Shown here piece by piece: positions 11,495-34,068 of a stretch of 58,233 bases of DNA. How positions within the stretch are numbered: the stretch's first letter is position 1; every line of letters begins with the position of its first letter. Below the pieces are notes generated by a model, which searched no databases, was not told the origin of the DNA, and saw only the letters and a program-made list of their open reading frames with translations. The translations under genes and the position numbers were made by a program. Source of the DNA: an uncultured Candidatus Saccharibacteria bacterium (GTDB taxonomy: Bacteria > Patescibacteriota > Minisyncoccia > UBA6257 > UBA11618); the NCBI GenBank assembly GCA_964373915.1, contig CAYJWP010000004.1, positions 1 through 58,233 on the forward strand, in the 5' to 3' direction.

Positions 11495-12847
11495 TTGAAA
11501 GTAGCATATAGAAGCGTGAATACTCTTGTCAAGACAAAACAGCTAACTCTGGCCGCAGGCGATGTCTTGATTCTCTATCTGTCGCTGGCTTTGACGCTGA
11601 TTATCCGTTACAGCGATCCCTTTTCCGGCCAGCTGGTGGCCGACCACCTTAAGCCCTTTACCCCGATATTCATTATCTGGATTCTGATTTTTTATATCGC
11701 CGGCCTCTATGAAATCCAGCACCTGAAAAACAATCTGGATTTTATAAAAAAATATGCCGCCGCTATTTCCATTAACGCCATTATCGCCGTTGCCGCTTTT
11801 TATTTTATGGCCTCGGGCATTGCTCCAAAAACCAATTTACTAATCTTACTGGCTCTTTTCAGTATTTTTGAATTCTTTTGGCGCCGTTTTTATAACAAAT
11901 TTTTAAGCGCCGGAGCGCCCATGACCAATGTCTTGCTTATTGGTTCCAGCAATAATGTTCAGGAAATAGTCCGACAAATAAAACAAAACCCCCAACTTGG
12001 TTATGACATCAAATTTTGGATAAAAAGCGAGGTTGGCGACAAAGAAATAGAACACATCAGCCAGATTATCATCTCCGAAAAAATAGACCTTATTGTTATT
12101 CCCAGCCATCTGAAAAAAGATTCCCGCGCCGCCCGCGCCATCTATCGCAATCTGGCCTTAGGCATAGAAACTGTGGATGTCGCCTCTTTTTACGAAGTTA
12201 TTTTTAAAAAAATTCCCCTTTCAGAAATAGAGGAGGTTTGGTTTTTGGAAAATTTGGTCCATAAAAATAAAATTTACAATTGGACTAAACAGCCGCTGGA
12301 TATTATCGCCGCTCTGGCGTTAGCCGTTATAACCTTGCCCCTGTCCTTGCTGATTTTTATTCTGATTAAAATAACCTCCGCCGGTCCGGCGCTTTACAAA
12401 CAAAAAAGAGTGGGCCAATACGAAGCTGAATTCATCCTTTATAAATTCCGCACCATGCTTAAAGACGCGGAAAAAACAGGGGCGCAGTGGTCGCAACCGG
12501 ATGACCAACGAATAACTGCCATCGGCCTTGTTTTGCGACGCAGCCACCTTGATGAACTGCCCCAGCTCATTAATATTATCAAAGGAGAATTATCCTTTGT
12601 CGGCCCCCGCCCGGAAAGGCCAGAATTTACCGGCCAGCTGCAGGAAAAGATTCCCTATTACGAACTGCGTCATCTAATCCGCCCCGGTCTGACCGGCTGG
12701 GCCCAGCTCAATTACCGCTACGGCGCCTCAGTGGAAGATGCTAAAGAAAAACTCCAACATGATATTTTCTATTTGAAAAATCGCTCCCTGTGGCTGGATT
12801 TAGGCATTATCCTAAAGACCATTAAGCTTTTCTTTATAAAAAACTAA
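11495..12847 (+). CDS. Polyprenyl-phosphate glycosyl-1-phosphate transferase (WbaP/bacterial sugar transferase family), priming enzyme
   Basis: N-terminal TM bundle plus C-terminal KRVGQYEAEFILYKFRTM, DELPQLINIIKGELSFVGPRPERPEF and RPGLTGWAQ. TTG start in the track, so the exact start is uncertain. Confidence 0.85.
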   Translation: MKVAYRSVNTLVKTKQLTLAAGDVLILYLSLALTLIIRYSDPFSGQLVADHLKPFTPIFIIWILIFYIAGLYEIQHLKNNLDFIKKYAAAISINAIIAVAAFYFMASGIAPKTNLLILLALFSIFEFFWRRFYNKFLSAGAPMTNVLLIGSSNNVQEIVRQIKQNPQLGYDIKFWIKSEVGDKEIEHISQIIISEKIDLIVIPSHLKKDSRAARAIYRNLALGIETVDVASFYEVIFKKIPLSEIEEVWFLENLVHKNKIYNWTKQPLDIIAALALAVITLPLSLLIFILIKITSAGPALYKQKRVGQYEAEFILYKFRTMLKDAEKTGAQWSQPDDQRITAIGLVLRRSHLDELPQLINIIKGELSFVGPRPERPEFTGQLQEKIPYYELRHLIRPGLTGWAQLNYRYGASVEDAKEKLQHDIFYLKNRSLWLDLGIILKTIKLFFIKN

Positions 12848-12848
12848 G

Positions 12849-14240
12849 ATGCCGGGCACAATATTGAAAAATACGCTCTGGCTGAGCGGCGGAGAAATAT
12901 TAGGCAGATTAATGAGAGCGGTCGTGGTTATTTATGCCGCCAGAGTTTTGGGCGCCTCCCAATGGGGCGTTTTTTCTTACGCCTTAAGCTTAGCCGCCTT
13001 GTTTACGATTTTTGCCGACATCGGCTTAGGGGCCGCTCTTACTAGAGAGCTCGTTAAAAGCCCGGAGCGCCGAGATGAATTTTTATCAGCCTCTCTGGCT
13101 ATCAAAGCCGCACTCCTCCTGTTTGTCTCCCTAATTGTTATCTTTGCCTCTCCTTATCTCACTAAAATAATTATCCCTCAAACTTTAATTATTCTCACGG
13201 CTCTTTTAGTTGTTTTTGATAGCCTGCGCTCCTTCGCTTTTTCCATAGTCCGAACCATGGAAAAAATGCATATTGAGGCGCTAGTCAATATCGTCACTCA
13301 AGCATCTATCGTCGCTTTGGGATTATGGATTCTGACAACTAAACCTTCTATAGAATATCTAGCCGGCGCTTATGTCGCCGCCAGCGCTTTCGGATTTATC
13401 TTGGTTTCGTGGATTATCAGAAATTATTTTAAAAAAATATTTTTCGGCTTTGATCGCCAATTAATAAAAAAAATTATCGTCTCGGCTTGGCCTTTTGCCC
13501 TATTAGGATTGATGGGTAGTGTTATGCTCAATACTGATATCATTATGCTCGGCTGGTTCCGTAGCGCCAACGATATAGGTTATTACTCGGTGGGACAGAA
13601 AATAATATTCGTCCTCTACGTCCTGCCAGCCGTTATCTCCACCGCCGCATTCCCCGCCCTCACCCGACTTGCCAGCCAGCAGAAAAAAGGAGAGTTTGCC
13701 GAACTTTTGGTTAAAACCATTAAAACCACCCTGATAATTGCCTTGCCTGTAGCCGTTGGAGGAATTATTGTCGCTCCAAAGCTTATCAATCTGCTCTTTG
13801 GCCCTGAATATCAAGCAGCTGTTACCGCCTTTAGAATTCTTCTTGCCAGCTTAGTCATTAATTATCCATCAACCGTGCTGGGCAACGCTCTCTTTGCTTA
13901 TGACCAGCAGAAACAATTTATAAAATACGCCGCCATCGGCGCCGGTGGCAATATTGTTTTTAATCTTGCTCTCATTCCCTATTGGGGCGTAGAGGGCGCG
14001 GCTGTTTCCACTCTCTTTACTCAAATTATAAGCAACTATTTTGTCTGGCAAAAAATGAGGCGGATAAATTACTTCAATATGGGCGGTCATCTGATAAAAG
14101 CCATAATCGCCACAATTATCATGGCAGTTCAAGTATGGACTTTCGCTTGGTTTAATGTTAATCTGCCGCTTGTTATTGTAAGCGGCGCCCTTATCTATCT
14201 ATTGGTTCTATTACTAGTGAAAGAACCTGCTTTAACATGA
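12849..14240 (+). CDS. Wzx-like oligosaccharide flippase (MOP superfamily)
   Basis: 463 aa, polytopic (about 12-14 TM), with the typical N-terminal NTLWLSGGEILGRLMRAVVVIYAARVLG. Confidence 0.8.
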   Translation: MPGTILKNTLWLSGGEILGRLMRAVVVIYAARVLGASQWGVFSYALSLAALFTIFADIGLGAALTRELVKSPERRDEFLSASLAIKAALLLFVSLIVIFASPYLTKIIIPQTLIILTALLVVFDSLRSFAFSIVRTMEKMHIEALVNIVTQASIVALGLWILTTKPSIEYLAGAYVAASAFGFILVSWIIRNYFKKIFFGFDRQLIKKIIVSAWPFALLGLMGSVMLNTDIIMLGWFRSANDIGYYSVGQKIIFVLYVLPAVISTAAFPALTRLASQQKKGEFAELLVKTIKTTLIIALPVAVGGIIVAPKLINLLFGPEYQAAVTAFRILLASLVINYPSTVLGNALFAYDQQKQFIKYAAIGAGGNIVFNLALIPYWGVEGAAVSTLFTQIISNYFVWQKMRRINYFNMGGHLIKAIIATIIMAVQVWTFAWFNVNLPLVIVSGALIYLLVLLLVKEPALT

Positions 14241-15049
14241 AAATCATATATGTCCTCGGCTTAAGCCATAGCGGCTCCACCTTGCTGGATTTTTTATTGA
14301 GCCACCACAAAAAAGTAGTAGGCCTTGGAGAATCTTATTCCGTGTTAGAAAATAAATTCTCTAATGCGGAAGAGACAGAAAAAATATGCTCTTGCGGGAA
14401 AAATCTTTCTTCGTGCGATTTGTGGTCAAATTATCCACAAAATCAAAAAAAGAACGACAAACAAGCGGCTATAGCCAGCTATAAAAAAATTATAAATCTT
14501 GCCTTTTCTATTCCCGGAAAAGAAGTTGTGGTGGATTCCTCAAAAAAAATATGGTTACTGGAAGAGCTCTTGAAAATGCAAGCCGCCAAAGAATTGGATT
14601 TAAAAATAATCTTTCTTGTTAGAGAAGCCCGTAGCTGGTCAACCTCTTACATTGAAGGCGGCAGAAGGACCAACCAGTGGATAAAACCGCCGATCTTTCC
14701 TCTACATCGCTGGTATTTTGAGAACAGAAAAATAAAAAATTTTTTAGATAAAAATAAAATTCCTTACTTTCAAACAAGCTATAGTAGTATCTGTTTTGAA
14801 ACCGATGAAACTATTGGTAAAATATTAGACTTTGCCGGCCTGCCCAGAGAAGAATTTTATTGGGATAATAATCCCGACAGCCATATCGCCTATGGCAACC
14901 GTGCCAAATTCGACCTAATGGAGCACAAAAAAATATCTTACGACTCCCGCTGGATTCACCGCTACTGGCTTAATTTATTTTTTACCCTAATGCCTCATAT
15001 TTACCTGTGGAACAAAAAAAATGTCATTCTTCTTAGGTATAAAAAATAA
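14237..15049 (+). CDS. Sulfotransferase-family protein (PAPS-dependent, inferred)
   Basis: N-terminal P-loop-like 5'-PSB motif GLSHSGSTLL and downstream VREARSWSTS (3'-PB-like). 4-nt overlap with the flippase gene. Confidence 0.7.
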   Translation: MKIIYVLGLSHSGSTLLDFLLSHHKKVVGLGESYSVLENKFSNAEETEKICSCGKNLSSCDLWSNYPQNQKKNDKQAAIASYKKIINLAFSIPGKEVVVDSSKKIWLLEELLKMQAAKELDLKIIFLVREARSWSTSYIEGGRRTNQWIKPPIFPLHRWYFENRKIKNFLDKNKIPYFQTSYSSICFETDETIGKILDFAGLPREEFYWDNNPDSHIAYGNRAKFDLMEHKKISYDSRWIHRYWLNLFFTLMPHIYLWNKKNVILLRYKK

Positions 15050-15052
15050 CTT

Positions 15053-15799
15053 ATGAGCAAAGACTCATTTCCCCAAAATTATTTCAGAAGCGAAATTGAT
15101 AAATCGGTCCCGGATAAAAACTCCTTAGAGAAAACCGCTCCCCGCCGGCGGCGTTTTCTGGTTAATTTTATAAAAAATCTGCCACCCAACGCCCGAGTTC
15201 TAGACGCCGGCTGCGGCACCGCCAAGGGCCTGAAAATGGTTATGGCTTATCGGCCGGATATAGAGGCCGTTGGCTTGGATGTTAGCGACGTCAGCCGCTT
15301 CGTCCCTGATAAAGCAAAGTTTTTAATTGGCTCCATTGAGGAAGCCGACAAACTTTTCGCTGAAGATTCCTTTGACGCCGTCATCTGCCTCCACGTTATG
15401 GAACATCTGCTTTATCCCATGAAAACTATGGAATCTTTTAAAAAAATTATTAAAAACGACGGTCTGCTCTTTATAGAAGTCCCCAATTGGGCGAGAATCA
15501 TCAATCCTTTTGCTTATATGTTTTTTTGGAATGATTATACTCACGTCAGATTATTCACTAAACAGGCCATGTGCCGCCTCATGGAAGACTATTCTTTTGA
15601 GATAAAATTACTAAAAACAATTATGTCCAGCGCCATTATTGAAGAGACGGAAACCTTAGCCAACGCCAAAAAAATTTACCGCCATAAAAAAATGTCCCCC
15701 CAGGACTTCATAAAAAAAGCTTCACGTTTAATTATTAATCGTTTTATTAATCTATTTATCAGAGATCTGCTGATTGTTATTGCTAAAAATCAAAAATGA
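15053..15799 (+). CDS. Class I SAM-dependent methyltransferase
   Basis: Motif I VLDAGCGTAKG, and FDAVICLHVMEHLLYP. Confidence 0.8.
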   Translation: MSKDSFPQNYFRSEIDKSVPDKNSLEKTAPRRRRFLVNFIKNLPPNARVLDAGCGTAKGLKMVMAYRPDIEAVGLDVSDVSRFVPDKAKFLIGSIEEADKLFAEDSFDAVICLHVMEHLLYPMKTMESFKKIIKNDGLLFIEVPNWARIINPFAYMFFWNDYTHVRLFTKQAMCRLMEDYSFEIKLLKTIMSSAIIEETETLANAKKIYRHKKMSPQDFIKKASRLIINRFINLFIRDLLIVIAKNQK

Positions 15800-16839
15800 A
15801 AAACTATTTCTATTTCTACGGCGGGGGCATAGGCAGTTTTTTTTTAGCCCTTTTTCTGATAGAAAATATCAGGTTAAATTTTGGCAACGAATCGGCGAAA
15901 TTTTATATTGTTGTTCCAACTCAAAAAAATATCTGTGAAGAATTAGGGGTTTGTTATCCATATATTAAAATAATCCAATTAAATAGAAAAAATTTTTTTT
16001 ATCGGATATTTGCTCTTCTGCCAAAAATTTTCTCCGAAAATTATGCCATGATGGCTCCGTCCTTTGGTAAAGGAAAAAACAACGTCAAATTAGCCGCTAA
16101 AATCATAACCTTATTAAACCCCAGAAGCAGGCTTATCGGCTTTAACGATGGAGCTAGATTAAGCCAAATTATTTATAACAAGGTTATTAGCCAGAATTTT
16201 GAAAAAAATATTTTCCAAACGATAAAGGAAATGCTTTTTGCCCTTGATTTAAAAGACCTGAAAGCAAATCCGGATTTTAAATTTATTCATGACGAGTCTG
16301 TGCTCCATCGCTACAGCCTGACTGCCAATAAATATCTTATCATCCACCCCTTTGCCGCTAATCCCAAAAGAAGTTTGCCGCCCGAACGCTGGTCTTCTCT
16401 TATAAAATACCTGCTCCGTAATCACTCCGGCTACAAAATTATCCTAATCGGCGGACCTAAAGATTCCCTAAAAGCCAAAGAGATTGTTGAAGACCTGAAT
16501 CACTCATTAGTCATTAACATTTCCGGAAAAACAACTCTGCAGGAAGAGGCTAATTTAATTCATCACGCTCTAGGTTACATTGGCGTGGACACAGGCATTA
16601 CCCATCTCGCCAGTTTAGTCGGCAAAAACAGCGTTGTTTTTGGCAATCTTTCTAATCCTTGCTGGCTGCCCCATTACAACCCAAACGCCAAAATATTAAC
16701 CAACAGCCAAAACTGCTCTTGTCAAAAAGACAAATCGGGCGATTGTTCAATTGTCCACAACGGAGCTTCCTATTTCCGCTGTCTTTTTGATATTCCCCAA
16801 GAGGAGATAGAAATTGCGGCTTCTTCACTTTTCCATTGA
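15796..16839 (+). CDS. Glycosyltransferase family 9 (heptosyltransferase-like)
   Basis: IIHPFAANPKRSLPPERW, IILIGGPKD, SGKTTLQEEANLI and IGVDTGITHLAS follow the GT9 (WaaC/WaaF-like) C-terminal pattern. Confidence 0.75.
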   Translation: MKNYFYFYGGGIGSFFLALFLIENIRLNFGNESAKFYIVVPTQKNICEELGVCYPYIKIIQLNRKNFFYRIFALLPKIFSENYAMMAPSFGKGKNNVKLAAKIITLLNPRSRLIGFNDGARLSQIIYNKVISQNFEKNIFQTIKEMLFALDLKDLKANPDFKFIHDESVLHRYSLTANKYLIIHPFAANPKRSLPPERWSSLIKYLLRNHSGYKIILIGGPKDSLKAKEIVEDLNHSLVINISGKTTLQEEANLIHHALGYIGVDTGITHLASLVGKNSVVFGNLSNPCWLPHYNPNAKILTNSQNCSCQKDKSGDCSIVHNGASYFRCLFDIPQEEIEIAASSLFH

Positions 16840-18087: not shown

Positions 18088-18115
18088 ATATTAATGGTAA
18101 CTCTATTACAAAACA

Positions 18116-20817: not shown

Positions 20818-20819
20818 AA

Positions 20820-21527: not shown

Positions 21528-24342
21528 TTAAATATTTTTCTTCTGAAAAAAAACTTTCGGCAAACTTTTGCCCATTGCCCGCCAGCTTTTGGATAAGCTC
21601 ATCATCGGTCATAATCCGCTTTAAAATTGAGGCCAAACCAATTTTGTCTCCAGCCGCAAAAAGCAGTCCCGTCTCTCCGTCCTTAATCATATCTGGTATA
21701 CCCCCCACTCGACTGCCAATAACTGCCAAACCAGCCGCCATCGCTTCCAGAATAACCCTGCCTAATGCCTCGGAGTAAGAAGGCAAGACCAAGATAGCGC
21801 ATTCGGACATTTTTTCAGCCAGTTCTTTTTGAGAAATTTTACCCAAAAACAAAACCCTCTCTCGGTCCTTTAACTTACCTGCGTAATCTTTATCCTTCTC
21901 CTCACCAACAATAAAAAGATTAACATCTGGAAATTCAGAAGAAATTTTATCAAAAGCGTCTATTAAAATATCAACGCCTTTAAGGGGAATAATATCTCCG
22001 GCAAAAATAATATTCTTCTCGCCACTCCTTCTTTGAGCCGCCGCCTTAAAAACACTAATGTCAGTCCATGCGGGAAATTTAACAACTGTTTTACCAACGC
22101 TCCATTTTATTAATTGATCAACGGTGGCCTTAGAAACACCCCGCAAGATATCGGCTTTACTCAAAGCAAAATGCGCCATTTTTTTCATAATCCAGAAGTA
22201 AACCCTCTCTCCTAAAATTTTCTTTCGCAGAAAAACAGCTCTTTCAAAATCTCCATGGCTTTCTATAATTAATTTAATTTTTTTACCAAAAAAACTGGCA
22301 AAAATTTTTGCCCAAGCGCCGGTAAATCCTTCGTAAGAGTCTTCGGCAACAATAATCTTCGCGCCTTTTGTAAAAATAAGCCAAAGAGACAATTTCAAAC
22401 CGAAGAAAAACATTAATAATCGGCGCATAAATGCAAAGGGCAGACGAGGAGCAAGATAAAAAACAGCGTGATTTTCGAATCTTTCAAATTTTCCCCGCGT
22501 TGAATAACCTATAACAAAAATTCTTCCTAATTTTGACAAAAGAGAAAACTTTTTAGCGGAAGTCTCATCTAAAGGACAACTATATTTTGTTTTTCCTAAA
22601 AAAATAATAGCTCGCTTGGATAAAAACTTGCGCTGATAATAAAAATCCAGCCAACCGCTTAACCTTAATCTCCACCAAAGATTAGAGTGTTTAATATTAA
22701 GGCTGTCCCGATGTAAATAAAATCTATTAGCGCCCCTATTTAAGAACCCCGGCACGATAGTAAACGCCCCATTAAAATTATTTTCTTTCAAAACAGAAAC
22801 GGCTTTTTCTGAAGTATTAGATAGTTGGCCAAAAGGATAGGCGAACCAGATGATTTTTTTGCCAGTCCACTCCTCTAAAGTTTTTTTATCACTTGTTATT
22901 TCCTCCTTAGAACAATCCCTACCCAAATCCATATGGTGGACTGTATGTCCGCCGATATCAAAGAGCGAATCGCCGGCTAAATCTTTTAACTGGTCTACGG
23001 TCAAAGGAAACAGTCTTCTATTTCTTTTTAAAAATCGCTTTCTAAAATCAGCCGCCGCTCCCCCATGTAAACCGATAAATCCAGAGCAAACAAAAAATGT
23101 CGCTGGTATTTTCAACTCCCGAAGGGCTGACGCAACAATTTCATGCCAAGAAGCGTATCCATCGTCAAGTGTAATAGCAATTTTACTCTTGTTATTCTGG
23201 TCTTGTTTAAGAATCTTCTCCAAAGAAACGATTTCGTATCTTTTTTGTAGCCATTCCATTTTCTCCCTAAATTTTTTTCCATCATTAATATCATGAAAAG
23301 CAATAACTCTATTTTTCGGCCAATTTATTTCGCTGATAATTTTAAAAATAAGCGATTTTATGGAATGCCCTTCTTTTACAATCAGACTCAAATCCCCCGG
23401 CTTATCAAAAAGCAAAGCCTTATCCAATTTTTCCATCTGATCTTCAATATCCTCCCCCTTAATTATAAATTTTTCCTTTATGGCTTCTGGTAAAATCTCC
23501 TCTACGCAATTGTTCGGAGTAAGCACCGGCAAACCACACGCTAACGCTTCTACCACCGCCTTATCCAAAGCGCCATCATTAAAACTGACAAAAACCCTGT
23601 GGCTATTTAGAATTTGCGGCAGTTCATCATGCTTTGTCCGCCCGTGCCATTGCACCAAATCCTCAACCCCAAGGATTTGAGACAAATTTTTAAGGCTATC
23701 GGCGTATGCCTTATCTTTTTCCAGTACCGGGCCATAAATATGCAACTTAAGCGGAGTTTGATATTTGCGATTATAACTGGCTAAAAGTTTAATCGCCTTT
23801 TCCAGTCGCTTCACCGGAGAAATTCTGCCCACTGTCACTAAGTCCCCCGCCTTATCAAGACCTAATGGTCTGAATTCTTCCGTATCAACTCCCTGTCCAA
23901 CAATACGCACTTTGCGCGATTTTAAAGGAAAAGCATTTTTAGTAGAGGCAAATATAAGATTATCGCAAAAGTAGGCATAAAAACGCATCATTGGACCGAT
24001 GCGCGGATGCGATTTCCATTGATAAACCGGCTTCCTCCAAAATAGTTTAAAAGGCAAAAGCAATAATGGATAAGGCCCGCCCATATAAATAAAAAAATAG
24101 TCGGTCTCTTTGATGTGCTTTAATATTTCTCTGTAAAAATTAATAAATTTCGCTAACTTTCCTCCTCTTACGTGGCGGACTCCAACCTTTTCTGAAAAAT
24201 TAAAATCGCCTCTCCTTAGAGTCAGAACGGTTAATTTTTCTATGGCGGAATTTTTGCTAAATTCTTCTATCCAACTGACAGTCGTTGCCAGTATTGGATC
24301 ATTGATATCAACCGCTTCGCAGATAAAAATTACCTTGGCCAT
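21490..24342 (-). CDS. Tri-domain fusion: GT4 glycosyltransferase - NodB polysaccharide deacetylase - GT4 glycosyltransferase (950 aa)
   Basis: The N-terminal GT-B half ends with ALDKAVVEALACGLPVL. The middle has ITLDDGYASWHEIV, PATFFVCSG and GGHTVHHMDL. The C-terminus has IIFAGDIIPLKGVD, LVLPSYSEALGRVILEAMAAGLAVIGSRVGGIPDMIKDGETGLLF. Confidence 0.8.
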   Translation of the reverse strand: MAKVIFICEAVDINDPILATTVSWIEEFSKNSAIEKLTVLTLRRGDFNFSEKVGVRHVRGGKLAKFINFYREILKHIKETDYFFIYMGGPYPLLLLPFKLFWRKPVYQWKSHPRIGPMMRFYAYFCDNLIFASTKNAFPLKSRKVRIVGQGVDTEEFRPLGLDKAGDLVTVGRISPVKRLEKAIKLLASYNRKYQTPLKLHIYGPVLEKDKAYADSLKNLSQILGVEDLVQWHGRTKHDELPQILNSHRVFVSFNDGALDKAVVEALACGLPVLTPNNCVEEILPEAIKEKFIIKGEDIEDQMEKLDKALLFDKPGDLSLIVKEGHSIKSLIFKIISEINWPKNRVIAFHDINDGKKFREKMEWLQKRYEIVSLEKILKQDQNNKSKIAITLDDGYASWHEIVASALRELKIPATFFVCSGFIGLHGGAAADFRKRFLKRNRRLFPLTVDQLKDLAGDSLFDIGGHTVHHMDLGRDCSKEEITSDKKTLEEWTGKKIIWFAYPFGQLSNTSEKAVSVLKENNFNGAFTIVPGFLNRGANRFYLHRDSLNIKHSNLWWRLRLSGWLDFYYQRKFLSKRAIIFLGKTKYSCPLDETSAKKFSLLSKLGRIFVIGYSTRGKFERFENHAVFYLAPRLPFAFMRRLLMFFFGLKLSLWLIFTKGAKIIVAEDSYEGFTGAWAKIFASFFGKKIKLIIESHGDFERAVFLRKKILGERVYFWIMKKMAHFALSKADILRGVSKATVDQLIKWSVGKTVVKFPAWTDISVFKAAAQRRSGEKNIIFAGDIIPLKGVDILIDAFDKISSEFPDVNLFIVGEEKDKDYAGKLKDRERVLFLGKISQKELAEKMSECAILVLPSYSEALGRVILEAMAAGLAVIGSRVGGIPDMIKDGETGLLFAAGDKIGLASILKRIMTDDELIQKLAGNGQKFAESFFSEEKYLNDYEELFKKSVL

Positions 24343-25187
24343 TGTTTTATTTTATATCCCAATAAAAATTCTAATTCCTCAACTTCGCCTTTCAACATTT
24401 CCCAAACAATCTTTTCTTCCTCCTCGCTTAAAATCGGCTCCCGGTCGCCCCCTTTTTCAGTATTTACCTTTTTTAAAATTATGGTTGGCAGTCCACTTTT
24501 CTTAATCATCCACCACAAGCCCTGCAAACCGTTGTTCCTTAAAAAATCAGAAACATTAATAAATAATCTATCCAACCAAATAAATTTTGGTATTCTGCCT
24601 TCGTTAACTTTTTTATTAAGATAAACCGGCCGGAAATTAGCAGGTACTCCGATAAATTCATAAACTCTCCTAATAAATGACCCAGGATCTGTTAACCCGT
24701 CTTCGTAAATAAGAATTAGAATCTGGTCTTTGGGGAAAAAATTGAGATAACGTCTCAAATTTGTCGCATAGCTGCTCCTGTTTATATAATCAGGATTAAT
24801 TTTTAGGGCCTCTAAGAAAAAAGTTTCTTTGGGAATTATCCCCGACTTAATATCATTAATGAATTGGGAAAAAGTCCTCTTAACCGGATTCCTTAAAGAA
24901 ACAATTAATTTAATCTTCGGATATCTGTTAAAAATTCTCTCCGGCGTTTCTGGATGAGAAAAATAAGAGGTACTGCTTTCTCCTATGACTTTTTTCCCGC
25001 TGTATTTAGAAAATAATGATTCATACCAATCGTAGCCTCTGGCCCAGTTTTTCTCCCGGCTAAAAAAACTGGGCTCATCCATAGGAATGCCAACTTCCGG
25101 ATGCTCGTATAAGCAAGTCGTCATCCAACGCGTTCCTGATCTGCCGGCGCCTATACCAATAAAATCAGGGCTTCTTTTCATTGCCAC
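24330..25187 (-). CDS. Sulfotransferase-domain protein
   Basis: FIGIGAGRSGTRWM (5'-PSB) and VSLRNPVKRTFSQF (3'-PB, RNP-x-x-R). Confidence 0.75.
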   Translation of the reverse strand: MAMKRSPDFIGIGAGRSGTRWMTTCLYEHPEVGIPMDEPSFFSREKNWARGYDWYESLFSKYSGKKVIGESSTSYFSHPETPERIFNRYPKIKLIVSLRNPVKRTFSQFINDIKSGIIPKETFFLEALKINPDYINRSSYATNLRRYLNFFPKDQILILIYEDGLTDPGSFIRRVYEFIGVPANFRPVYLNKKVNEGRIPKFIWLDRLFINVSDFLRNNGLQGLWWMIKKSGLPTIILKKVNTEKGGDREPILSEEEEKIVWEMLKGEVEELEFLLGYKIKQWPR

Positions 25188-25245
25188 AAAATACCATTTT
25201 TAAATAGTTTTGACAATAGAAGGAAAACCATTATATTCTTCTTTT

Positions 25246-25887
25246 ATGCAATTTACCCGAAAAATATTAAACGGCTTATTCATCTGGTATGGAGGGCCAA
25301 AAAGATATCACAATATATATAAAATTATTAATGAGATAAAGCCAAAAAATATAATGGAGATAGGCACCTATAGGGGAGAAAGAGGATTGCGAATGATAAC
25401 CGAAGCTAAAAAATTTCACCCAGCAGAAGCAATTAATTATTATGGCTTTGACCTTTTTGAAGAAATGAAAGAAGAAACATTTGTTAAAGAAATTTCTAAA
25501 AATCCAATAACGGAAGAACAAACTAAAATAAAACTTGGTGAAACTGGCGCCAACATCGATCTCTTTAAGGGTTACACTTCATCAACCCTACCTCAGGCCT
25601 TTCCCCTCCTCCCTAAAATGGATTTTATTTTTATAGATGGCGGCCATAGCCTGGACACTGTCGCTAACGATTGGCAATGGTGTGAAAGGTTAATGCACGA
25701 TAACACGGTAGTCATTTTTGACGATTATTGGAACCGCGATGACGCCGGAGCAAAACCTATAATTGAAAATTTGGATAGAAATAAATACGAAGTAGCAATA
25801 TTGAATCCTCAAGATAAATTTAAAAAAGATTGGGGGGTGTTAGAAATAAATTTCGTTCGTGTCCAAAGAAAAAATACCGCGGCCTAG
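25246..25887 (+). CDS. Class I SAM-dependent methyltransferase (Methyltransf_24-like)
   Basis: Contains IMEIGTYRGERG, FIFIDGGHSLDTVANDW and VVIFDDY. ATG 25246 preferred over the track's TTG 25210. Confidence 0.65.
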   Translation: MQFTRKILNGLFIWYGGPKRYHNIYKIINEIKPKNIMEIGTYRGERGLRMITEAKKFHPAEAINYYGFDLFEEMKEETFVKEISKNPITEEQTKIKLGETGANIDLFKGYTSSTLPQAFPLLPKMDFIFIDGGHSLDTVANDWQWCERLMHDNTVVIFDDYWNRDDAGAKPIIENLDRNKYEVAILNPQDKFKKDWGVLEINFVRVQRKNTAA

Positions 25888-26468
25888 GCCAGCAACAACT
25901 CTCCCACCTCCGGCTCCGGAGAAACATTAGACTTCCACTTTAAGCATCTTTGATCACACAAACTCTCTTCGTCGCTCAAACCCAACACCCCGGCTTGGAG
26001 CATCCTTAACGGATTACCATGGCTGATGATTAAAATACTATGATTCTGGTGCTTACTATCTATGTCCCGCCAAGCCGCCAACATCCTTTCCTTTAAATCA
26101 TTTAGGTTTTCTCCTCCGGGAGGACGTTTAACAAATTTCTCCATGTCATTTTTAAAGAAACCATCCCGCTCTTTCCAAGTTCTGCCGTTAAAAATCCCGC
26201 AATCAAGCTGCCTCAAACGGTTATCGGCAAAAGCTGGAACGTTTAAATAAACGTTGACCAATCTGCAAGTTTCACAGACCCTTTTAAAAGGGGAATGGTA
26301 AATCATATGGATGTTTAATTTCACCAGCTCCTTCCCCAATCTCTCCGCTTGCTTTAAGCCCTCGGGAGTGATATTAGATTTTTCATCAGTTTCTCTGTCC
26401 GCCGATATCCAGCCACCGACATTATGGTCGGATTGGACATGACGCATAATAAGATAATTATTCCCCAT
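25884..26468 (-). CDS. Histidine phosphatase family protein (phosphoglycerate-mutase-like)
   Basis: LIMRHVQSDHN (RHG-type catalytic motif) and IISHGNPLR (second catalytic His). Start at MGNNY (26468). Confidence 0.75.
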   Translation of the reverse strand: MGNNYLIMRHVQSDHNVGGWISADRETDEKSNITPEGLKQAERLGKELVKLNIHMIYHSPFKRVCETCRLVNVYLNVPAFADNRLRQLDCGIFNGRTWKERDGFFKNDMEKFVKRPPGGENLNDLKERMLAAWRDIDSKHQNHSILIISHGNPLRMLQAGVLGLSDEESLCDQRCLKWKSNVSPEPEVGELLLA

Positions 26469-26484
26469 TTTAAAAGTCATTATA

Positions 26485-27537
26485 ATGAAAATTTTATTTA
26501 TTGTCACCCAGTCGGAATTAGGCGGCGCCCAGCGCTGGATTTTTGATACGGCTACTCATTTGGATAAAAATAAATATCAAATTGCCGTCGCCTCTGGCGG
26601 CAACGGCCCCTTGTCGGCAAATTTACAACAAAAAAATATTACCGTTTTCAGGCTCAAATATTTGGCCAGAAACATCAGTCCCTTCACCGACTTTTTTAGC
26701 TTGCTGGAAATTTACCGCCTTATTAAAAAAGAAAAACCTGGCATTTTACAGCTCTGCAGCACCAAAGCCGGTTTTCTCGGCTCCATCTCCGGCAAGCTAG
26801 CCCATGTACCAAAAATAGTCTATCGCATCGGCGGCTGGAGTTTTAATGATCCTCGCCCTCGTTGGCAAAATTTAATTTTTTTATGGCTAGAAAAATTAAC
26901 CGCGCCATTTAAAGATAAGATTATTGTCAATTCCCAATATGATTTTAATCAAGCGATTAAATTAAAAATATGTCCTAAAGAAAAATTAATTTTAATTTAT
27001 AATGGCATAAATTTGGAAGAGATAAGTAATGCTAGTGTTTTTTCTAACGATGAGACCCACCTTATAAAAATAGGCGCTATCGCTAACAACTATCCCGCTA
27101 AAGGGCTTAAATATTTATACAAAGCCATGGACTTGATAGAAAAAAATAATAAATTAGAACTTCTAGTTATTGGCAAAGGCACAAAAATTGGACCCAAAGA
27201 CGACCCTTGGCAATATTTCGCCGAACAGGGCGGTATTGGTATTTTTGTCATCCCTTCTCTTAAAGAAGGAGTCCCCTATGTTTTACTTGAAGCTATGGCC
27301 GCCGGCCTGCCGATTATTGCTACCAAAGTCGGAGGCATTCCGGAAATCATAGCCGATAGAAAAGAAGGGTTGCTCATTCCGCCTGCTAATTCTGAAAAGA
27401 TAGCCGAAGCAATAAAAACGCTTGCAGAAAATCAGGGCCTAAGAAAATCCCTAGCTCAAACCGCCAAAGAAACCGTTAAAAATTTTTCGCTGGAGAAAAT
27501 GATTGCCAAATATAGCCAATTAATACTTAATCTTTAG
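26485..27537 (+). CDS. GT4-family glycosyltransferase
   Basis: MKILFIVTQSELGGAQR and PSLKEGVPYVLLEAMAAGLPIIATKVGGIPEII (E-x7-E). Confidence 0.85.
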   Translation: MKILFIVTQSELGGAQRWIFDTATHLDKNKYQIAVASGGNGPLSANLQQKNITVFRLKYLARNISPFTDFFSLLEIYRLIKKEKPGILQLCSTKAGFLGSISGKLAHVPKIVYRIGGWSFNDPRPRWQNLIFLWLEKLTAPFKDKIIVNSQYDFNQAIKLKICPKEKLILIYNGINLEEISNASVFSNDETHLIKIGAIANNYPAKGLKYLYKAMDLIEKNNKLELLVIGKGTKIGPKDDPWQYFAEQGGIGIFVIPSLKEGVPYVLLEAMAAGLPIIATKVGGIPEIIADRKEGLLIPPANSEKIAEAIKTLAENQGLRKSLAQTAKETVKNFSLEKMIAKYSQLILNL

Positions 27538-29652
27538 AGCGATATCCAGTTCGCCCCATCGTTCTTTTTTTGTGAGTTCAATAATGATATCCATCTCTTT
27601 TACTAGATCTTCGCTTATATCTTTCATTCTGTCAGCGTTTTTAATAACCGCCTCCTTATTTCTCTGCCTAACATGATAAATAATATTACTGCTTAAAATA
27701 GTTATCATATTCTGATAGTCTGGTTCATTAAAATAAAGACGGCCCAATTCAAAAGCCTTGTTAATAGACGCTTCGCCTTCAATGCTGTGTCCTTGATTTG
27801 CTAAATATAAAATAGCGCCAAAAATATAGTGCGCTCTTCCGGAATTTGGACTAAGCTCTATTCCCTGTCTCGCTGTCGCCAAAGCCTGTTCCTTTTTTCC
27901 AGCAAGAACAAGAGAATAGGCATAAGTAAAATACAATTCCTGCCTTCTGGGCGACAGCTCTAGAGCCTTCTTCATAGCCACTTCAGCTTTAGTAAAATAA
28001 GACGCGTCAACCCGTCCTTTGTTGTTGTACATTTCCGCTAAACGAATAAATGAACGGGGACTGTAAGGTTCACGCCCCACATAATCTTCCATCGCCGCCA
28101 ACGCCTTATTAGTCAAAAGATTAAGCTCTTCTTTTGAGAAAGCGTCCGCCCTTACTAAAAGATCTACTAATTCGCCCCTGATGGTAGATTGGACGAAAGT
28201 ATAGGGCTCTAAAAAATTATCTAACTTTTCATACAAAATCTCTGTACTTCCCTGATGCCTCGTCACGTTAAAGGTTCTAGCTTGCCGATAAGGAAGGTAA
28301 TTATAGGCAAAAATAGAGTAAGCTATCGGAAGTATCATAAGCGTCATTAAAACTTGAAACCAAAAACTGGAAACAAATGAGCTGTTTTGAAACTGATTAT
28401 TTCTCTCAATAACTAATATAAAAACCAATCCCAAAGAAACGAAGAACATTAAATAACTGTTAACCTGATCAAAAACAAAAAGATTCTGAACAAAATAAGC
28501 AACGAACAAAAAACTTAGAATAGCGCTTAGTTTTTTGTCGCCGTTTTTTATTAAATAGAAAAATACCCAGCCGAATATTGTTAGATAAAGCGCTAACCCT
28601 AACAAGCCCTGCATTACTGCCACATCTAAAATCTTGTTATGGGCCCGATCAAACCATGAAGCTTCGTAGAGCAAATAGTCGGGATTGTAATATTTATTGT
28701 AGGCAATCTCCACATTCTCTAACCCCCATCCCAAAATCGGCTTTTCTTTTAAAGCTAATCCAGCTGTGCTTATTGATATCAATCTTGTCTGCACTGTCGG
28801 ATGTTTCCAAGAAACTCTGGCCACTCTATTCAATCCCGGAATCTTCTGCCACACAGAACTGCTTCTAGTCGCCCAAAAGCCAGCCATTGATAAAAAAATC
28901 AAAATTACTGCCAATAAAAGATATTTCTTGGTTAAAACAACTCGCCAATAATAAGCTCCGATAAAAACCAATCCTGCCAATAAACCTACCAAGGCTCCCC
29001 TAGTGCTTGATAAGAACAGCTCCACGAAAAAAAGAATGGCGGCTAATAAAGAGAAATACCTCCAAAAACTTCTTTTTTCTGAATTAATAAAAATTAATAT
29101 GGCTAAAGGCAGGAGAAATAAAAAATGAGTTCCCAGATAAGAAGAGTTGCCTAAGAAAGCATCGGGTCTTGGATTAACAGAGAAAGCAAAGGGAAATCTA
29201 TCCCAGCCAAAAAACTGAAGAAAGCTGTAGAAAACAATTATTGTTCCCGCAACCAGAGTGGTTTTTATATACAAAAACCACTCTCTTTTCTGAAAAACAA
29301 CCGCTGCCATTACAAAAAAAGCCAGATAATGTAGCCAGCCAAACAACCCCTCCATTCTTTCCGCCTCCCCCCAAAACGCCCGATAAACATTATCTGCCAA
29401 AAAAGTGCTTATAGCCGCTGAAACAAAAAACAACAAAACAAAAATAAACAACGGCTGTTTTATTAATGCCAGCATTCTATTTTTCAAATCAGCTCCTCTG
29501 ATAAGCTCAACTATAAATAAAATTAAACCCAACTCTACCAACGCCCTAAAGAAAAAAGCTTTTCCAGTAACAAAGGGAAAAATAAGCGACGGCGTATAAA
29601 TCAAGGGCGTAACAGCCGTTGCAAGAAGCAAAAACTTCAAAATTCTCTGCAT
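27520..29652 (-). CDS. Wzy_C (O-antigen ligase/O-oligosaccharyltransferase-like) polytopic membrane protein with C-terminal TPR domain
   Basis: 710 aa, about 12 TM. GWGLENVEIAYNKYYNPDYLLYEASWFDRAHN lies in a periplasmic-type loop. The C-terminal ~230 aa has TPR-like A/Y/G-spaced repeats. Confidence 0.75.
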   Translation of the reverse strand: MQRILKFLLLATAVTPLIYTPSLIFPFVTGKAFFFRALVELGLILFIVELIRGADLKNRMLALIKQPLFIFVLLFFVSAAISTFLADNVYRAFWGEAERMEGLFGWLHYLAFFVMAAVVFQKREWFLYIKTTLVAGTIIVFYSFLQFFGWDRFPFAFSVNPRPDAFLGNSSYLGTHFLFLLPLAILIFINSEKRSFWRYFSLLAAILFFVELFLSSTRGALVGLLAGLVFIGAYYWRVVLTKKYLLLAVILIFLSMAGFWATRSSSVWQKIPGLNRVARVSWKHPTVQTRLISISTAGLALKEKPILGWGLENVEIAYNKYYNPDYLLYEASWFDRAHNKILDVAVMQGLLGLALYLTIFGWVFFYLIKNGDKKLSAILSFLFVAYFVQNLFVFDQVNSYLMFFVSLGLVFILVIERNNQFQNSSFVSSFWFQVLMTLMILPIAYSIFAYNYLPYRQARTFNVTRHQGSTEILYEKLDNFLEPYTFVQSTIRGELVDLLVRADAFSKEELNLLTNKALAAMEDYVGREPYSPRSFIRLAEMYNNKGRVDASYFTKAEVAMKKALELSPRRQELYFTYAYSLVLAGKKEQALATARQGIELSPNSGRAHYIFGAILYLANQGHSIEGEASINKAFELGRLYFNEPDYQNMITILSSNIIYHVRQRNKEAVIKNADRMKDISEDLVKEMDIIIELTKKERWGELDIALKIKY

Positions 29653-29691
29653 AATATTCTTTGGATATATTAATCAAAACAACGATAAAAC

Positions 29692-29727
29692 AAAAGCCCC
29701 CGTCCGCCGACTGGCGGAGCGGGGGGC
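29692..29727 (-). terminator. Intrinsic terminator after the 1136-aa surface-protein gene
   Basis: Minus strand reads GCCCCCCGCTCCGCC-AGTC-GGCGGACGGGGGC followed by TTTTGTTTT. Confidence 0.75.
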
Positions 29728-34028: not shown

Positions 34029-34068
34029 TTCCTACCAGTGTAAAAATGTTTTAGTATATTGTCAAAGT

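Follow-up and report, generated by a model that had tools for sequence, protein, structure and literature searches.

All known O-oligosaccharyltransferases (O-OTases) carry Wzy_C/WaaL-like domains (PMC12645811). Ligases, polymerases and O-OTases have the Wzy_C domain and WaaL fold in common, and neither feature by itself identifies the acceptor (PMC12645811). Dedicated O-OTases are often encoded beside their own substrate, and PglL prefers disordered regions rich in Ala, Pro and Ser (PMC12645811). A TPR motif is found at the C terminus of both WsfB and PglL, and slg clusters may have S-layer genes as neighbours (PMC2943079). Here we analysed a stretch of 58,233 nucleotides from an ultra-small, uncultivated member of the Patescibacteria (hereafter, the window), in which a glycan-assembly island adjoins the gene of a secreted surface protein (Surf). 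We consider it probable that this island is a Wzx/Wzy_C-type en bloc locus, similar to those of PglL and WsfB, that is dedicated to O-glycosylation of Surf. Machinery of this type is known, whereas both the lineage and the chemistry are unstudied.

Gene content and integrity of the island

Glycan-assembly genes tile the whole island (11495-29652), with intergenic gaps of -38 to +28 nt, in the following order (TM, transmembrane segment).

11495..12847, + strand: PGT, priming polyprenyl-phosphate glycosyl-1-phosphate transferase (about 5 TM plus Bac_transf); backbone
12849..14240, + strand: Wzx1, MOP-family flippase (Polysacc_synt, about 12 TM); backbone
14237..15049, + strand: ST3, Sulfotransfer_3-family sulfotransferase (PF13469); first cassette gene
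15053..15799, + strand: MT23, class I SAM methyltransferase (Methyltransf_23, PF13489, 1e-19); cassette
15796..16839, + strand: GT9, heptosyltransferase-like glycosyltransferase (PF01075); cassette
16825..18087, - strand: Wzx2, divergent second MOP/Wzx-like flippase (Polysacc_synt, about 10 TM); cassette
18116..19540, + strand: HldE, bifunctional heptose-7-phosphate kinase/heptose-1-phosphate adenylyltransferase (PfkB plus CTP_transf_like); cassette
19533..20180, + strand: MT11, class I SAM methyltransferase (Methyltransf_11, PF08241, a weak 33.6 bits); cassette
20170..20817, - strand: MetW-MT, MetW-like class I SAM methyltransferase (PF07021, 1.5e-23); cassette
20820..21527, - strand: stand-alone NodB-type polysaccharide deacetylase (PF01522, 7e-27); cassette
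21490..24342, - strand: GT4-NodB-GT4 triple fusion of 950 aa (two Glycos_transf_1 domains plus Polysacc_deac_1 at residues 382-516); cassette
24330..25187, - strand: ST1, Sulfotransfer_1-family sulfotransferase (PF00685, 63 bits, 4e-17); variable, at the cassette edge
25246..25887, + strand: MT24, Methyltransf_24, TylF/MycF-like O-methyltransferase class (PF13578, 1e-13); backbone
25884..26480, - strand: histidine phosphatase, branch 1 (PF00300, 1.6e-32); window only
26485..27537, + strand: stand-alone GT4 (Glyco_transf_4 plus Glycos_transf_1); backbone
27520..29652, - strand: Wzy_C-TPR, WaaL-fold membrane enzyme (about 13 TM plus C-terminal TPR); candidate O-OTase

This tiling gives 16 genes instead of the 19 originally predicted, a single stand-alone GT4 (26485-27537) where two had been listed, and seven strand switches where five had been counted. 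The domain classes proposed earlier were each matched by Pfam above the gathering score in the window ORFs, and domain searches upheld the sulfotransferase, GT9 and Wzx calls. Also as predicted, Wzz/PCP chain-length regulators, ABC exporters and LPS-core proteins were without a match in the scanned window ORFs; GmhA, GmhB and PAPS-synthesis genes were likewise absent from the window. The GC content was 0.36-0.41 within the island vs 0.45-0.48 in the flanks. Coverage of the island by near-identical contigs was even in four metagenomes, drawn from two studies, and the island is therefore not an assembly chimera.

PGT matched Bac_transf (212 bits, 5.6e-63) and passed TIGR03025 (352 bits vs a cutoff of 296), and fell below the cutoffs of both the WbaP and WcaJ models (WbaP, 204 vs 403). 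The earlier description as WbaP-type therefore holds for its architecture, that of a large PGT of the WbaP/WcaJ kind, and not for the WbaP subfamily; because of this score we left its sugar specificity unassigned. Wzx1 (Polysacc_synt 135 bits, 4e-39; Polysacc_synt_3 and MurJ also match) gave a stronger flippase match than Wzx2 (44.8 bits vs a cutoff of 28.2). HldE scored below the cutoff of the full-length model (NF008454, 5.5e-145, 484 vs 521), with domain II above that of TIGR02199, and matched HldA (4e84, 2e-46) and HldC (5x9q, 1e-33) in the PDB. The stand-alone NodB was without a TM segment or signal.

ST3 matched PF13469 (35.5 bits vs a cutoff of 27) and, weakly, the CurM sulfotransferase. 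Its loop GLSHSGST and motif REARSWSTS are kept in an orthologue of 50% identity, and its 5'-phosphosulfate loop has a His in place of the Lys or Arg usual in sulfotransferases; its family counts 70 representatives at E<=1e-30, a number that rises to 3349 when the threshold is relaxed to E<=1e-3. The closest PDB matches of ST1 were 3rnl (6e-23) and heparan-sulfate 3-O-sulfotransferases (7e-21). MT24 has its own promoter-like site (TTGACA-16-TATATT), and since this fills 25210-25237, we preferred the originally proposed start at 25246 to the longest-ORF start at 25210. The histidine phosphatase probably starts at ATG 26480 or 26468, downstream of a promoter-like GTGACA-17-TATAAT site.

Conserved site, backbone and accessory cassette

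Comparison with relatives' loci showed that the island occupies a conserved site. In a relative of 53% identity (L007) the gene order is ClpB, 6-TM membrane protein, (HTH), Surf (~1140 aa), Wzy_C, variable glycan genes, Wzx, PGT, DsbA and TrxB. Both flanks (the ClpB side and the DsbA/TrxB side) are the same in the closest relative (L001/L003/L012), where Surf is 66% and the enzymes are 44–62% identical and where 14 of the 16 island genes are syntenic, not scattered. At this site L007 has six genes only (Wzy_C, GT4, MT24, GT4-like, Wzx and PGT), and in the distant relative L015 the site is empty, with no island.

PGT, Wzx1, MT24, GT4 and Wzy_C-TPR are common to the window and L007. The block comprising ST3, MT23, GT9, Wzx2, HldE, MT11, MetW-MT, NodB, the fusion and ST1 was found in the window and one relative only. 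Thus, the minimal L007 locus, the empty L015 site and the syntenic closest relative show the island to consist of a conserved backbone and, added to it, an accessory cassette of ~11 kb. By its domains, the cassette (14237-25187) carries the putative heptose, sulfate and deacetylase genes, most of the predicted methyl genes and a candidate flippase of its own, Wzx2. The two-sub-pathway mosaic of the original prediction stands in this evolutionary sense, as a backbone and an accessory block with a second flippase; the cassette, together with Wzx2, would have been inserted into the backbone at the fixed site between ClpB and DsbA/TrxB.

Among backbone proteins, PGT was 67% identical to its L007 orthologue and 62% to that of L012, Wzx1 58% to that of L007, and the stand-alone GT4 59% and 55% to those of L001 and L007, respectively; MT24 has orthologues of 56% identity in L007 and L001, the L001 copy sitting elsewhere in the order. 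L001 also encodes orthologues of MT23 (60%), MT11 (51%), MetW-MT (55%), the stand-alone NodB (50%) and, at the equivalent position, Wzx2 (49%; none in L007), and ST1 is shrunk there to a 55-aa remnant. The histidine phosphatase had no orthologue in L001, L007 or L012. For the triple fusion, a single other full-length homologue (P0003, 48% identity) was found among 5.8 billion proteins.

Surf, Wzy_C-TPR and their neighbours

Beyond Wzy_C-TPR lie four further genes of interest.

29781..33191, - strand: Surf, secreted 1136-aa surface protein (N-terminal helix, PG_binding_1-like domain, about 8 Ig-like beta-sandwich domains); proposed glycan acceptor
33477..34028, - strand: small DeoR-like HTH protein (HTH_DeoR, 2.4e-5); upstream of Surf, recurrent neighbour
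34012..35907, + strand: WzyC2, second Wzy_C paralogue of 631 aa (Wzy_C, 2.4e-13; about 12 TM plus a helical C-terminal domain)
35891..36583, - strand: conserved 6-TM membrane protein (six TM-like segments)

The island had been described as ending at a giant surface-protein gene; Surf (29781-33191) does adjoin it, and at 1136 aa is large rather than giant. Its gene is preceded by a promoter-like site of its own (33411-33383) and followed by a terminator hairpin (~29690-29735). The AF2 model (pLDDT 85.5) contains disordered segments at residues 1-39, 58-66 and 165-182, and fold searches returned generic multi-Ig matches. Surf has ~110 homologues; the taxon-named ones belong to Parcubacteria/Patescibacteria candidate phyla (Harrison-, Lipton- and Sungbacteria and Paceibacterota), with the exception of one labelled 'bacterium' only. 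Two disordered linkers are rich in Ser, Thr, Pro and Ala, and it is this composition, not the sequence, that is kept in ~35 of 37 family members.

Wzy_C-TPR matched Wzy_C (62.9 bits) and TPR models, with a weak sub-threshold match to the repeat-unit polymerase model TIGR04370 (25 bits). It gave a confident AF2 model (pLDDT 92.7), and the best PDB fold match of its membrane domain was WaaL (7tpg, TM 0.63). R218, R290, D335, R336 and H338 are invariant, with the invariant Arg, Arg and His predicted to lie in outward-facing loops. Helix counting and a weak positive-inside signal suggest that the TPR domain, past the 13th TM helix, should face outside. A C-terminal TPR is a feature shared with WsfB and PglL; in contrast, the accessory domains that mark PglL/PglS (PglL_A and Wzy_C_2) were undetected by Pfam in Wzy_C-TPR. 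All taxon-named members among its >900 homologues are Patescibacteria/Parcubacteria, and those of Surf and Wzy_C-TPR together include Harrison-, Lipton-, Sung-, Wolfe-, Vogel- and Zambryskibacteria and Parcubacteria. These names assign the contig to the Parcubacteria/Patescibacteria.

WzyC2 aligned with the Wzy_C-TPR family (hhalign, 5e-61, 24% identity) and retains WFDRxHN and R290, with Ser in place of R218; orthologues occupy the equivalent position in L006 (41% identity) and L015, with none in L003 or L007. The HTH protein has orthologues upstream of Surf in L006, L007, L008 and L015, and none in L003. The 6-TM protein, without Pfam or NCBIfam match, separates ClpB from the Surf locus in six of the seven relatives' loci containing ClpB (the exception being L014), with counterparts of 238-251 aa in L003, L006, L007, L008 and L015.

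Predicted O-glycosylation of Surf and alternative readings

The acceptor had been left open in the original prediction; most likely it is the adjacent Surf. From domain content we infer a glycan that would be heptose-containing, N-deacetylated, O-methylated and sulfated. At the cytoplasmic face, PGT would load a sugar-phosphate onto polyprenyl phosphate, and the stand-alone GT4, both fusion GT4 domains and GT9, the latter drawing on ADP-heptose from HldE, would extend it to roughly a pentasaccharide. The fusion NodB domain and the stand-alone NodB may de-N-acetylate HexNAc residues, and the four SAM methyltransferases and two sulfotransferases may add further decoration. Once flipped outward by Wzx1 and/or Wzx2, the lipid-linked glycan would be transferred extracellularly by Wzy_C-TPR to Ser/Thr of the Ser/Thr/Pro-rich disordered linkers of Surf, with the outward TPR domain docking the protein substrate. 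As judged from its predicted functions, the L007 set is the exact minimal gene set for en bloc O-glycosylation; its locus lacks a polymerase/ligase pair as well as Wzz and LCP.

The alternative that survives best, which we nevertheless regard as doubtful, is that the island makes a wall polysaccharide or glycolipid (cf. secondary cell-wall polymers or teichuronic acid) instead of a protein glycan. Wzy_C-TPR, perhaps with WzyC2, would then be the repeat-unit polymerase and/or a ligase to lipid or peptidoglycan, and Surf would bind the polymer, as S-layer proteins do with SCWP, or be organised by it, or simply be an inherited neighbour. Wzy_C-domain proteins of monoderms are often polymerases (TuaE, capsule Wzy), the weak TIGR04370 match points the same way, two Wzy_C paralogues and two Wzx in the window suit a polymerase and ligase pair, and the N-terminal domain of Surf is predicted to bind the wall. 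Ligases, polymerases and O-OTases are, moreover, inseparable by domain or fold (PMC12645811). However, no Wzz/PCP and no LCP ligase was found in the scanned window ORFs or any relative's locus, and the minimal loci of L007 and L001 have one Wzy_C enzyme each, too few for polymerisation plus attachment. The predicted outward TPR is a protein-binding module, also present in WsfB and PglL, and the mucin-like Ser/Thr/Pro linkers are conserved in Surf, both of which count against this alternative.

A second alternative, which we find unlikely, retains protein O-glycosylation and makes it general, like the PglL systems of Neisseria and Burkholderia: a large number of secreted proteins would be modified, with Surf as one abundant substrate and not a dedicated partner. 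The Wzy_C-TPR family (>900) far exceeds the Surf family (~110), a Wzy_C-TPR homologue of 30% identity lies in a nonulosonate cluster with no Surf adjoining (L010), and PglL-type enzymes have relaxed substrate specificity (PMC12645811). A dedicated pair is favoured by substrate-adjacent encoding, which is typical of dedicated O-OTases (PMC12645811), and by the persistence of the pairing within the Surf clade through complete turnover of the sugar genes. Of 9 sampled loci, 7 have a Wzy_C-family gene adjoining Surf, over a Surf identity range of 26-66%, with wholly different sugar genes (fucose/epimerase in L009, AsnB in L008, ATP-grasp in L006); the distant Surf loci L013 and L014 are without Wzy_C within 8 kb. 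This adjacency may in part be inherited gene order.

Very improbable is a third reading, in which GT9 is a direct protein heptosyltransferase of the TibC/Aah kind that heptosylates Surf in the cytoplasm from ADP-heptose, separately from the lipid-linked pathway. GT9 does match TIGR04414 (Aah/TibC) weakly in NCBIfam (3e-7), and its C-terminal five-Cys cluster (C289, C307, C309, C317 and C329), which is kept in the orthologue, presumably resembles the TibC iron-finger, a likeness we take as a lead only. Nevertheless, LPS heptosyltransferase models outscore Aah/TibC (4e-16), the Glyco_transf_9 match (PF01075) reaches 78.7 bits vs a cutoff of 22, the top PDB matches are WaaF (1psw, 1.8e-6) and WaaC, with TibC at E=2.4, and the gene lies between a methyltransferase and a flippase, inside the lipid-linked-glycan cassette.

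Scarcely credible is an LPS core/O-antigen module in a diderm envelope, with Wzy_C-TPR as the WaaL ligase to lipid A-core: HldE, GT9 and the WaaL fold all belong to the classical LPS repertoire, but the locus is not one for LPS, since the host belongs to the Patescibacteria, which are not known to have an outer membrane or lipid A genes, all taxon-named homologues of the flank and backbone proteins are from Patescibacteria, the scanned window ORFs and relatives' loci yielded none of the Lpx, Kdo, Lpt and Wzz genes, and Surf appears to be anchored via its peptidoglycan-binding domain. In species-representative genomes, the sole ST3 homologue found belongs to a Gammaproteobacteria MAG, where it adjoins GT9, GT4 and methyltransferase genes; the cassette thus appears to have relatives in LPS loci and may have originated from one.

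Gene content, integrity and lineage of the island

Sixteen ORFs tile the island between 11495 and 29652, with spacings of -38 to +28 nt in the ORF listing, where the original prediction had counted 19 genes; it had also given two stand-alone GT4 domains and five strand switches, and we found one free GT4 and seven switches. The domain classes that it named were all confirmed by Pfam and NCBIfam, and its WbaP-type priming transferase held in part: the protein is a large Bac_transf protein (212 bits) that passed TIGR03025 (352 versus a cutoff of 296) but fell below the WbaP and WcaJ cutoffs. The two MOP/Wzx flippases, Wzx1 and Wzx2, have 10-12 TM segments each and Polysacc_synt scores of 135 and 44.8 bits, both above the cutoff of 28.2. 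The island also encodes a 950-aa GT4-NodB-GT4 fusion and a separate, stand-alone NodB, a branch-1 histidine phosphatase, a Sulfotransfer_3 and a Sulfotransfer_1 protein (ST3 and ST1) and four class I SAM methyltransferases.

Genes at the right-hand end of the island and beyond
27520-29652, minus strand: Wzy_C-TPR, a 710-aa membrane enzyme with a Wzy_C domain (62.9 bits in Pfam)
29781-33191, minus strand: Surf, a 1136-aa surface protein and the proposed glycan acceptor
34012-35907, plus strand: WzyC2, a second Wzy_C paralogue

The GC content is 0.36-0.41 in the island versus 0.45-0.48 in its flanks. Near-identical contigs from four metagenomes (two studies) cover the island evenly, and their alignment to it gave no supported structural variants (few joints, with sides shorter than 30 nt); the island is therefore a genuine and stable part of this population's genome. 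Consistently with the prediction that no chain-length regulator or LPS core genes are in view, Wzz/PCP and LPS genes were not found in the scanned ORFs of the window, and the Wzz/PCP chain-length regulator of a polymerising variant was absent from the relatives' loci as well.

The organism was placed from the taxon names of homologues. Named members of the approximately 110 Surf homologues come from Candidatus Harrisonbacteria (56% identity), Liptonbacteria, Sungbacteria, Parcubacteria and Paceibacterota, and all taxon-named matches among the more than 900 Wzy_C-TPR homologues are Patescibacteria, which identifies the window as a Parcubacteria/Patescibacteria contig. Anammox S-layer glycosylation, first weighed on GC content and methylation, was dropped because the homologue names are those of Parcubacteria. 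Patescibacteria are monoderm, account for much of bacterial diversity and live attached to other cells; to our knowledge, they have no LPS and almost nothing is known of their surface chemistry.

A conserved backbone and a variable cassette at one site

Among 5.8 billion proteins, the fusion had one full-length homologue (48% identity); an exact look-up gave no match, and a scan of species-representative genomes found no relative. Of the 16 island genes, 14 have orthologues (44-62% identity), with order and orientation kept, on the contig that encodes this homologue, from the closest relative; the flanks there match those of the window, with an LTD protein, TrxB and DsbA on one side and Surf, a membrane protein and ClpB on the other. 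Surf is the best-conserved gene of the locus (66% versus 44-62% for the enzymes). Compared with the window, only a 55-aa remnant is left of ST1, there is no histidine phosphatase, a 759-aa double GT4 is extra and the methyltransferase MT24 is relocated. The remnant ORF (9846-10013 of the relative's locus L001; 62% identity to ST1 over 40 aa) adjoins the double-GT4 gene, which occupies the place of ST1 and the histidine phosphatase; we take this as direct evidence that the cassette was remodelled recently.

At locus L007, whose Surf is 53% identical, the stretch from Surf to DsbA holds only Wzy_C, GT4, MT24, a GT4-like gene, Wzx and a priming transferase, with 40-67% identity to the Wzy_C-TPR, GT4, MT24, Wzx1 and priming transferase of the window. 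Surf loci from Harrisonbacteria (L006) and Liptonbacteria (L008), and a third one (L009), have Surf, then one or two Wzy_C genes, then unrelated sugar genes that differ from locus to locus (ATP-grasp in L006; AsnB in L008; epimerases, GT2 and GT11 in L009). L015 (GCA_028865725.1, JAGWJP010000002.1, 4768-13808; Surf 26% identical) is an 'empty site' with no glycan island, in which Surf is directly followed by DsbA-Grx-TrxB-GAPDH-RpiB-Rpe-Tkt and a WzyC2-like gene and an HTH gene lie upstream of Surf. Despite complete sugar-gene turnover, Surf has a Wzy_C-family neighbour in seven of the nine sampled loci. No Wzy_C gene was found within 8 kb of Surf in the distant loci L013 and L014 (Surf 25% identical), where a 250-278-aa membrane-anchored TPR-only protein is encoded after Surf (L013:12445-13281 and L014:11775-12527); these proteins had no significant similarity to the TPR domain of Wzy_C-TPR and were left out of the evidence.

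Since the same site has differing contents across the Surf clade, we divide the window island into a backbone and an accessory cassette.

Parts of the window island
Conserved backbone: priming transferase, Wzx1, MT24, GT4 and Wzy_C-TPR
Accessory cassette, 14237-25187, about 11 kb: ST3, the methyltransferase MT23, GT9, Wzx2, HldE, the methyltransferases MT11 and MetW-MT, NodB, the GT4-NodB-GT4 fusion and ST1
Extra gene specific to the window: histidine phosphatase

The earlier view of the island as a mosaic of sub-pathways is supported by this comparison of conserved core and variable cassette, which puts the second flippase in the cassette.

Two further genes of the flanks keep their position. 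In the left flank, a 999-aa secreted lamin-tail protein (5516-8515, minus strand) has a 39%-identity orthologue at the same position in the closest relative (L012:1-2403). A protein of 230 aa (35891-36583, minus strand), with six TM-like segments and without any family match, sits between ClpB and the Surf locus; its counterparts of 238-251 aa are at the same position in L003, L006, L007, L008 and L015.

Wzy_C-TPR, Surf and the proposed O-glycosylation

The AlphaFold model of Wzy_C-TPR (pLDDT 92.7) shows a membrane domain followed by a C-terminal TPR superhelix. A PDB profile search with the full alignment was swamped by TPR proteins and a fold search was used instead, in which the best match of the membrane domain was the WaaL O-antigen ligase of Cupriavidus metallidurans (7tpg; TM 0.63 over 451 columns, with a sequence identity of 16%). 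R99, R218, R290, D335, R336 and H338 are invariant in an alignment of 45 Wzy_C-TPR sequences, and the outer-face Arg/Arg/His of WaaL are conserved. As in WaaL, the predicted donor is a polyprenyl-diphosphate-linked glycan; unlike Wzy_C-TPR, WaaL has no TPR domain, and its lipid A-core acceptor is not expected in Patescibacteria. Helix counting gave 13 TM helices and the positive-inside signal was weak; the topology of WaaL (N-terminus inside, catalytic loop outside), taken together with the 13th helix, would put the TPR domain on the outer side of the membrane, that of the catalytic loop. WzyC2 is of the same family (hhalign 5e-61); the WFDRxHN motif and R290 are retained, and a Ser takes the place of the otherwise invariant R218. 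A counterpart of WzyC2 precedes Surf in L006 and L015 and is missing in L003 and L007.

The model of Surf (pLDDT 85.5) comprises a signal/anchor region, a helix, a PG_binding_1-like helical domain and approximately eight Ig-like beta-sandwich domains, with disordered segments at 58-66 and 165-182. In about 35 of the 37 aligned family members, both are rich in Ser/Thr/Pro/Ala/Gly, and the linkers vary in length and sequence with their composition kept (TPTTPTTPTTP or poly-Thr runs, for example). The protein has zero Cys and 21% Ser+Thr. It has a PG_binding_1-like anchor and no SLH domain, and a specific S-layer family was not retained for it, as the fold search gave generic multi-Ig matches only. 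The gene has its own promoter-like site and a leader of about 190 nt. Its terminator hairpin, long, GC-rich and followed by a T-run (29690-29735, minus strand), comes directly after the stop codon; not listed by the consensus scan, it is a strong candidate for an intrinsic terminator.

The O-OTases known so far all have Wzy_C/WaaL-like domains, dedicated ones are usually encoded next to their own substrate, and PglL prefers disordered Ala/Pro/Ser-rich regions (PMC12645811). Wzy_C-TPR has the O-antigen-ligase-related (Wzy_C) and WaaL-like membrane domain of the PglL/PglS class, and the locus encodes the priming glycosylphosphotransferase, MOP/Wzx flippase and Wzy_C-family enzyme of en bloc assembly. 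It resembles the PglL/PglS/TfpO systems of Neisseria, Burkholderia and Acinetobacter (PMC12645811) in the order from priming transferase through GTs and flippase to a Wzy_C/WaaL-like O-OTase, in having that enzyme beside its candidate substrate, in the hypervariable glycan genes and in the disordered Ser/Ala/Pro-rich nature of the acceptor regions, which are here proposed. Unlike those systems, it belongs to a monoderm envelope and has as its candidate substrate a multi-Ig wall protein of 1136 aa instead of a pilin or periplasmic protein; unlike PglL and PglS, Wzy_C-TPR lacks PglL_A and Wzy_C_2 (Pfam lists Wzy_C and TPR families only) and carries a TPR superhelix of about 250 residues after the 13th TM helix.

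A second likeness is to the slg loci of Paenibacillus alvei and Geobacillus stearothermophilus (WsfB/WsaB, WsaP), which have a WbaP-like priming transferase and O-methyltransferases and which the S-layer gene can adjoin; a C-terminal TPR motif is found in PglL and in WsfB, the predicted S-layer O-OTase (PMC2943079). Shared features are the monoderm host, the WbaP-like priming transferase, glycan O-methylation, a target gene that can adjoin the cluster with its own transcription (here Surf, with its promoter-like site and terminator hairpin) and a Wzy_C-domain transferase, with a C-terminal TPR as in WsfB, whose predicted role is to pass a lipid-linked glycan to a surface-layer protein, a likeness to WsfB/WsaB drawn from their descriptions. 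The AsnB homologue wsfA of the P. alvei slg locus (PMC2943079) has a parallel in L008, in which an asparagine-synthase homologue (18100-20025) follows two Wzy_C genes. The differences are the Wzx flippases here versus the Wzm/Wzt ABC transporter of G. stearothermophilus, the PG_binding_1-type anchor versus SLH domains, a heptose that would be ADP-activated (HldE and GT9), the sulfotransferases and the GT4-NodB-GT4 fusion, and the Patescibacteria lineage.

The minimal set of L007 (priming transferase, two GTs, methyltransferase, Wzx and one Wzy_C) is exactly what en bloc protein O-glycosylation needs. Together with the O-OTase and slg parallels, it leads us to read the locus as PglL/WsfB-like O-glycosylation of Surf, and we consider a system dedicated to Surf, perhaps not exclusively, the likelier account on balance. 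Transfer of a lipid-linked glycan to Ser/Thr of a protein is predicted, with indirect support from the adjacency of Surf and its conserved Ser/Thr/Pro linkers. That the locus makes a wall polysaccharide, with Surf as its binder, is less likely yet plausible. The Wzy_C domain and WaaL fold are common to O-OTases, ligases and polymerases (PMC12645811) and do not tell the first from the other two, PglL_A and Wzy_C_2 are missing and Wzy_C-TPR has a sub-threshold match to a polymerase model. The L007 set is without the additions of a polymer pathway, namely a second Wzy_C enzyme, Wzz and LCP. For O-glycosylation of Surf, the kind of machinery is known; what is new is the lineage and the fixed-site core-plus-cassette architecture beside a conserved surface protein, together with the family of TPR-fused WaaL-fold enzymes and a heptose/sulfate/methyl cassette whose fusion is nearly unique. 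For Patescibacteria, our literature searches gave no paper on either protein O-glycosylation or enzymes like the O-antigen ligase.

Predicted cassette chemistry, wider meaning and transcription starts

HldE and GT9, both present for the ADP-L/D-glycero-D-manno-heptose pathway, recall LPS inner-core heptose synthesis. HldE is full-length and bifunctional, scores slightly below the equivalog cutoff and matches HldA (2e-46) and HldC (1e-33) in the PDB; GT9 has WaaF and WaaC as its best PDB relatives (divergent, E about 1e-6). Unlike the LPS pathway, they lie in a Wzx-type glycan island of a bacterium without LPS, with no gmhA, gmhB or hldD nearby: Pfam scanning of the window ORFs found none of these, nor cysC or cysDN, and PAPS supply (sulfate adenylyltransferase and APS kinase) was not found in the same ORFs. 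The window does encode non-oxidative pentose-phosphate enzymes, a source of sedoheptulose-7-phosphate. GT9 (15796-16839) further differs from WaaC/WaaF by an extra conserved Cys cluster near its C-terminus (C289, C307, C309, C317 and C329, within residues 289-329); all five Cys are kept in the 47%-identity orthologue L001:17608-18651, and the cluster, judged from sequence, may be metal-binding. A TibC/Aah-like protein heptosyltransferase was rejected for GT9 (TIGR04414 29.7 bits versus a cutoff of 200; PDB 4rap, E=2.4).

ST1 scores above its profile cutoff, has the 5'-PSB and 3'-PB motifs of sulfotransferases (GAGRSGT and LRNPVKRTFS) and matches the bacterial sulfotransferase 3rnl and heparan-sulfate 3-O-sulfotransferases in the PDB. 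ST3 is above the Pfam cutoff, with a weak PDB match to the CurM sulfotransferase, and its 5'-phosphosulfate loop SHSGST has a conserved His at the position usually taken by Lys or Arg. Its family comprises 70 representatives at E<=1e-30; a scan with the ST3 alignment found one Gammaproteobacteria MAG among species-representative genomes and, among metagenome contigs, only the relative already known. The ST3 homologue of that MAG (JARRNJ010000078.1, 1-10789) is 40% identical, in a locus of 61% GC, with GT9-, GT4- and methyltransferase-like genes beside it. From these neighbours, the cassette probably has LPS-locus relatives, and the ST3/GT9 module may have been horizontally acquired. An LPS-type product, which that sole ST3 homologue beside GT9, GT4 and methyltransferase genes would favour, is unlikely in a Patescibacteria lineage with no LPS genes in the scanned window ORFs.

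Returning to O-glycosylation of Surf, we infer every chemical step as follows. The accessory cassette would elaborate the basal glycan with heptose (HldE and GT9), de-N-acetylated hexosamine (NodB twice), methyl and sulfate groups; five transferase domains would give roughly a pentasaccharide; and Wzx2 may flip either this elaborated unit or a separate one that contains heptose. Tentatively, and with the odds somewhat against so broad a claim, we propose that Parcubacteria have lineage-wide, dedicated glycosylation of their main wall-anchored surface protein by a WaaL-fold OTase with an outward TPR 'reader' encoded beside its substrate, with cassettes swapped like O-antigen loci at a fixed hotspot, here yielding a sulfated, O-methylated, partly de-N-acetylated heptoglycan without LPS, and that this coat governs how these episymbionts attach to hosts or evade phages. 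The locus offers a concrete model with three parts: the surface protein, abundant and conserved; next to it, a WaaL-fold enzyme whose protein-binding domain would face outward; and, at a fixed site, a hypervariable cassette. If true, it would account for LPS-type parts (HldE, GT9, WaaL-like) in bacteria without LPS, predict that strain-specific heptoglycans, sulfated and methylated, determine host recognition or phage resistance and add a new O-oligosaccharyltransferase class for glycoengineering; if the acceptor is wrong, the core-plus-cassette architecture still documents a monoderm episymbiont diversifying in the manner of O-antigen loci.

MT24, the histidine phosphatase and possibly Wzy_C-TPR have promoter-like -10 boxes at 0-9 nt upstream of their start codons.

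Promoter-like sites at start codons
25210-25248: MT24, TTGACA-16-TATATT, then ATG 25246
26466-26507, minus strand: histidine phosphatase, GTGACA-17-TATAAT overlapping ATG 26480; next ATG 26468
29650-29677, minus strand: possible promoter-like site of Wzy_C-TPR

Their position suggests that small transcription units are leaderless or near-leaderless, and indicates that the longest-ORF starts at 25210 and 26507 are too long.
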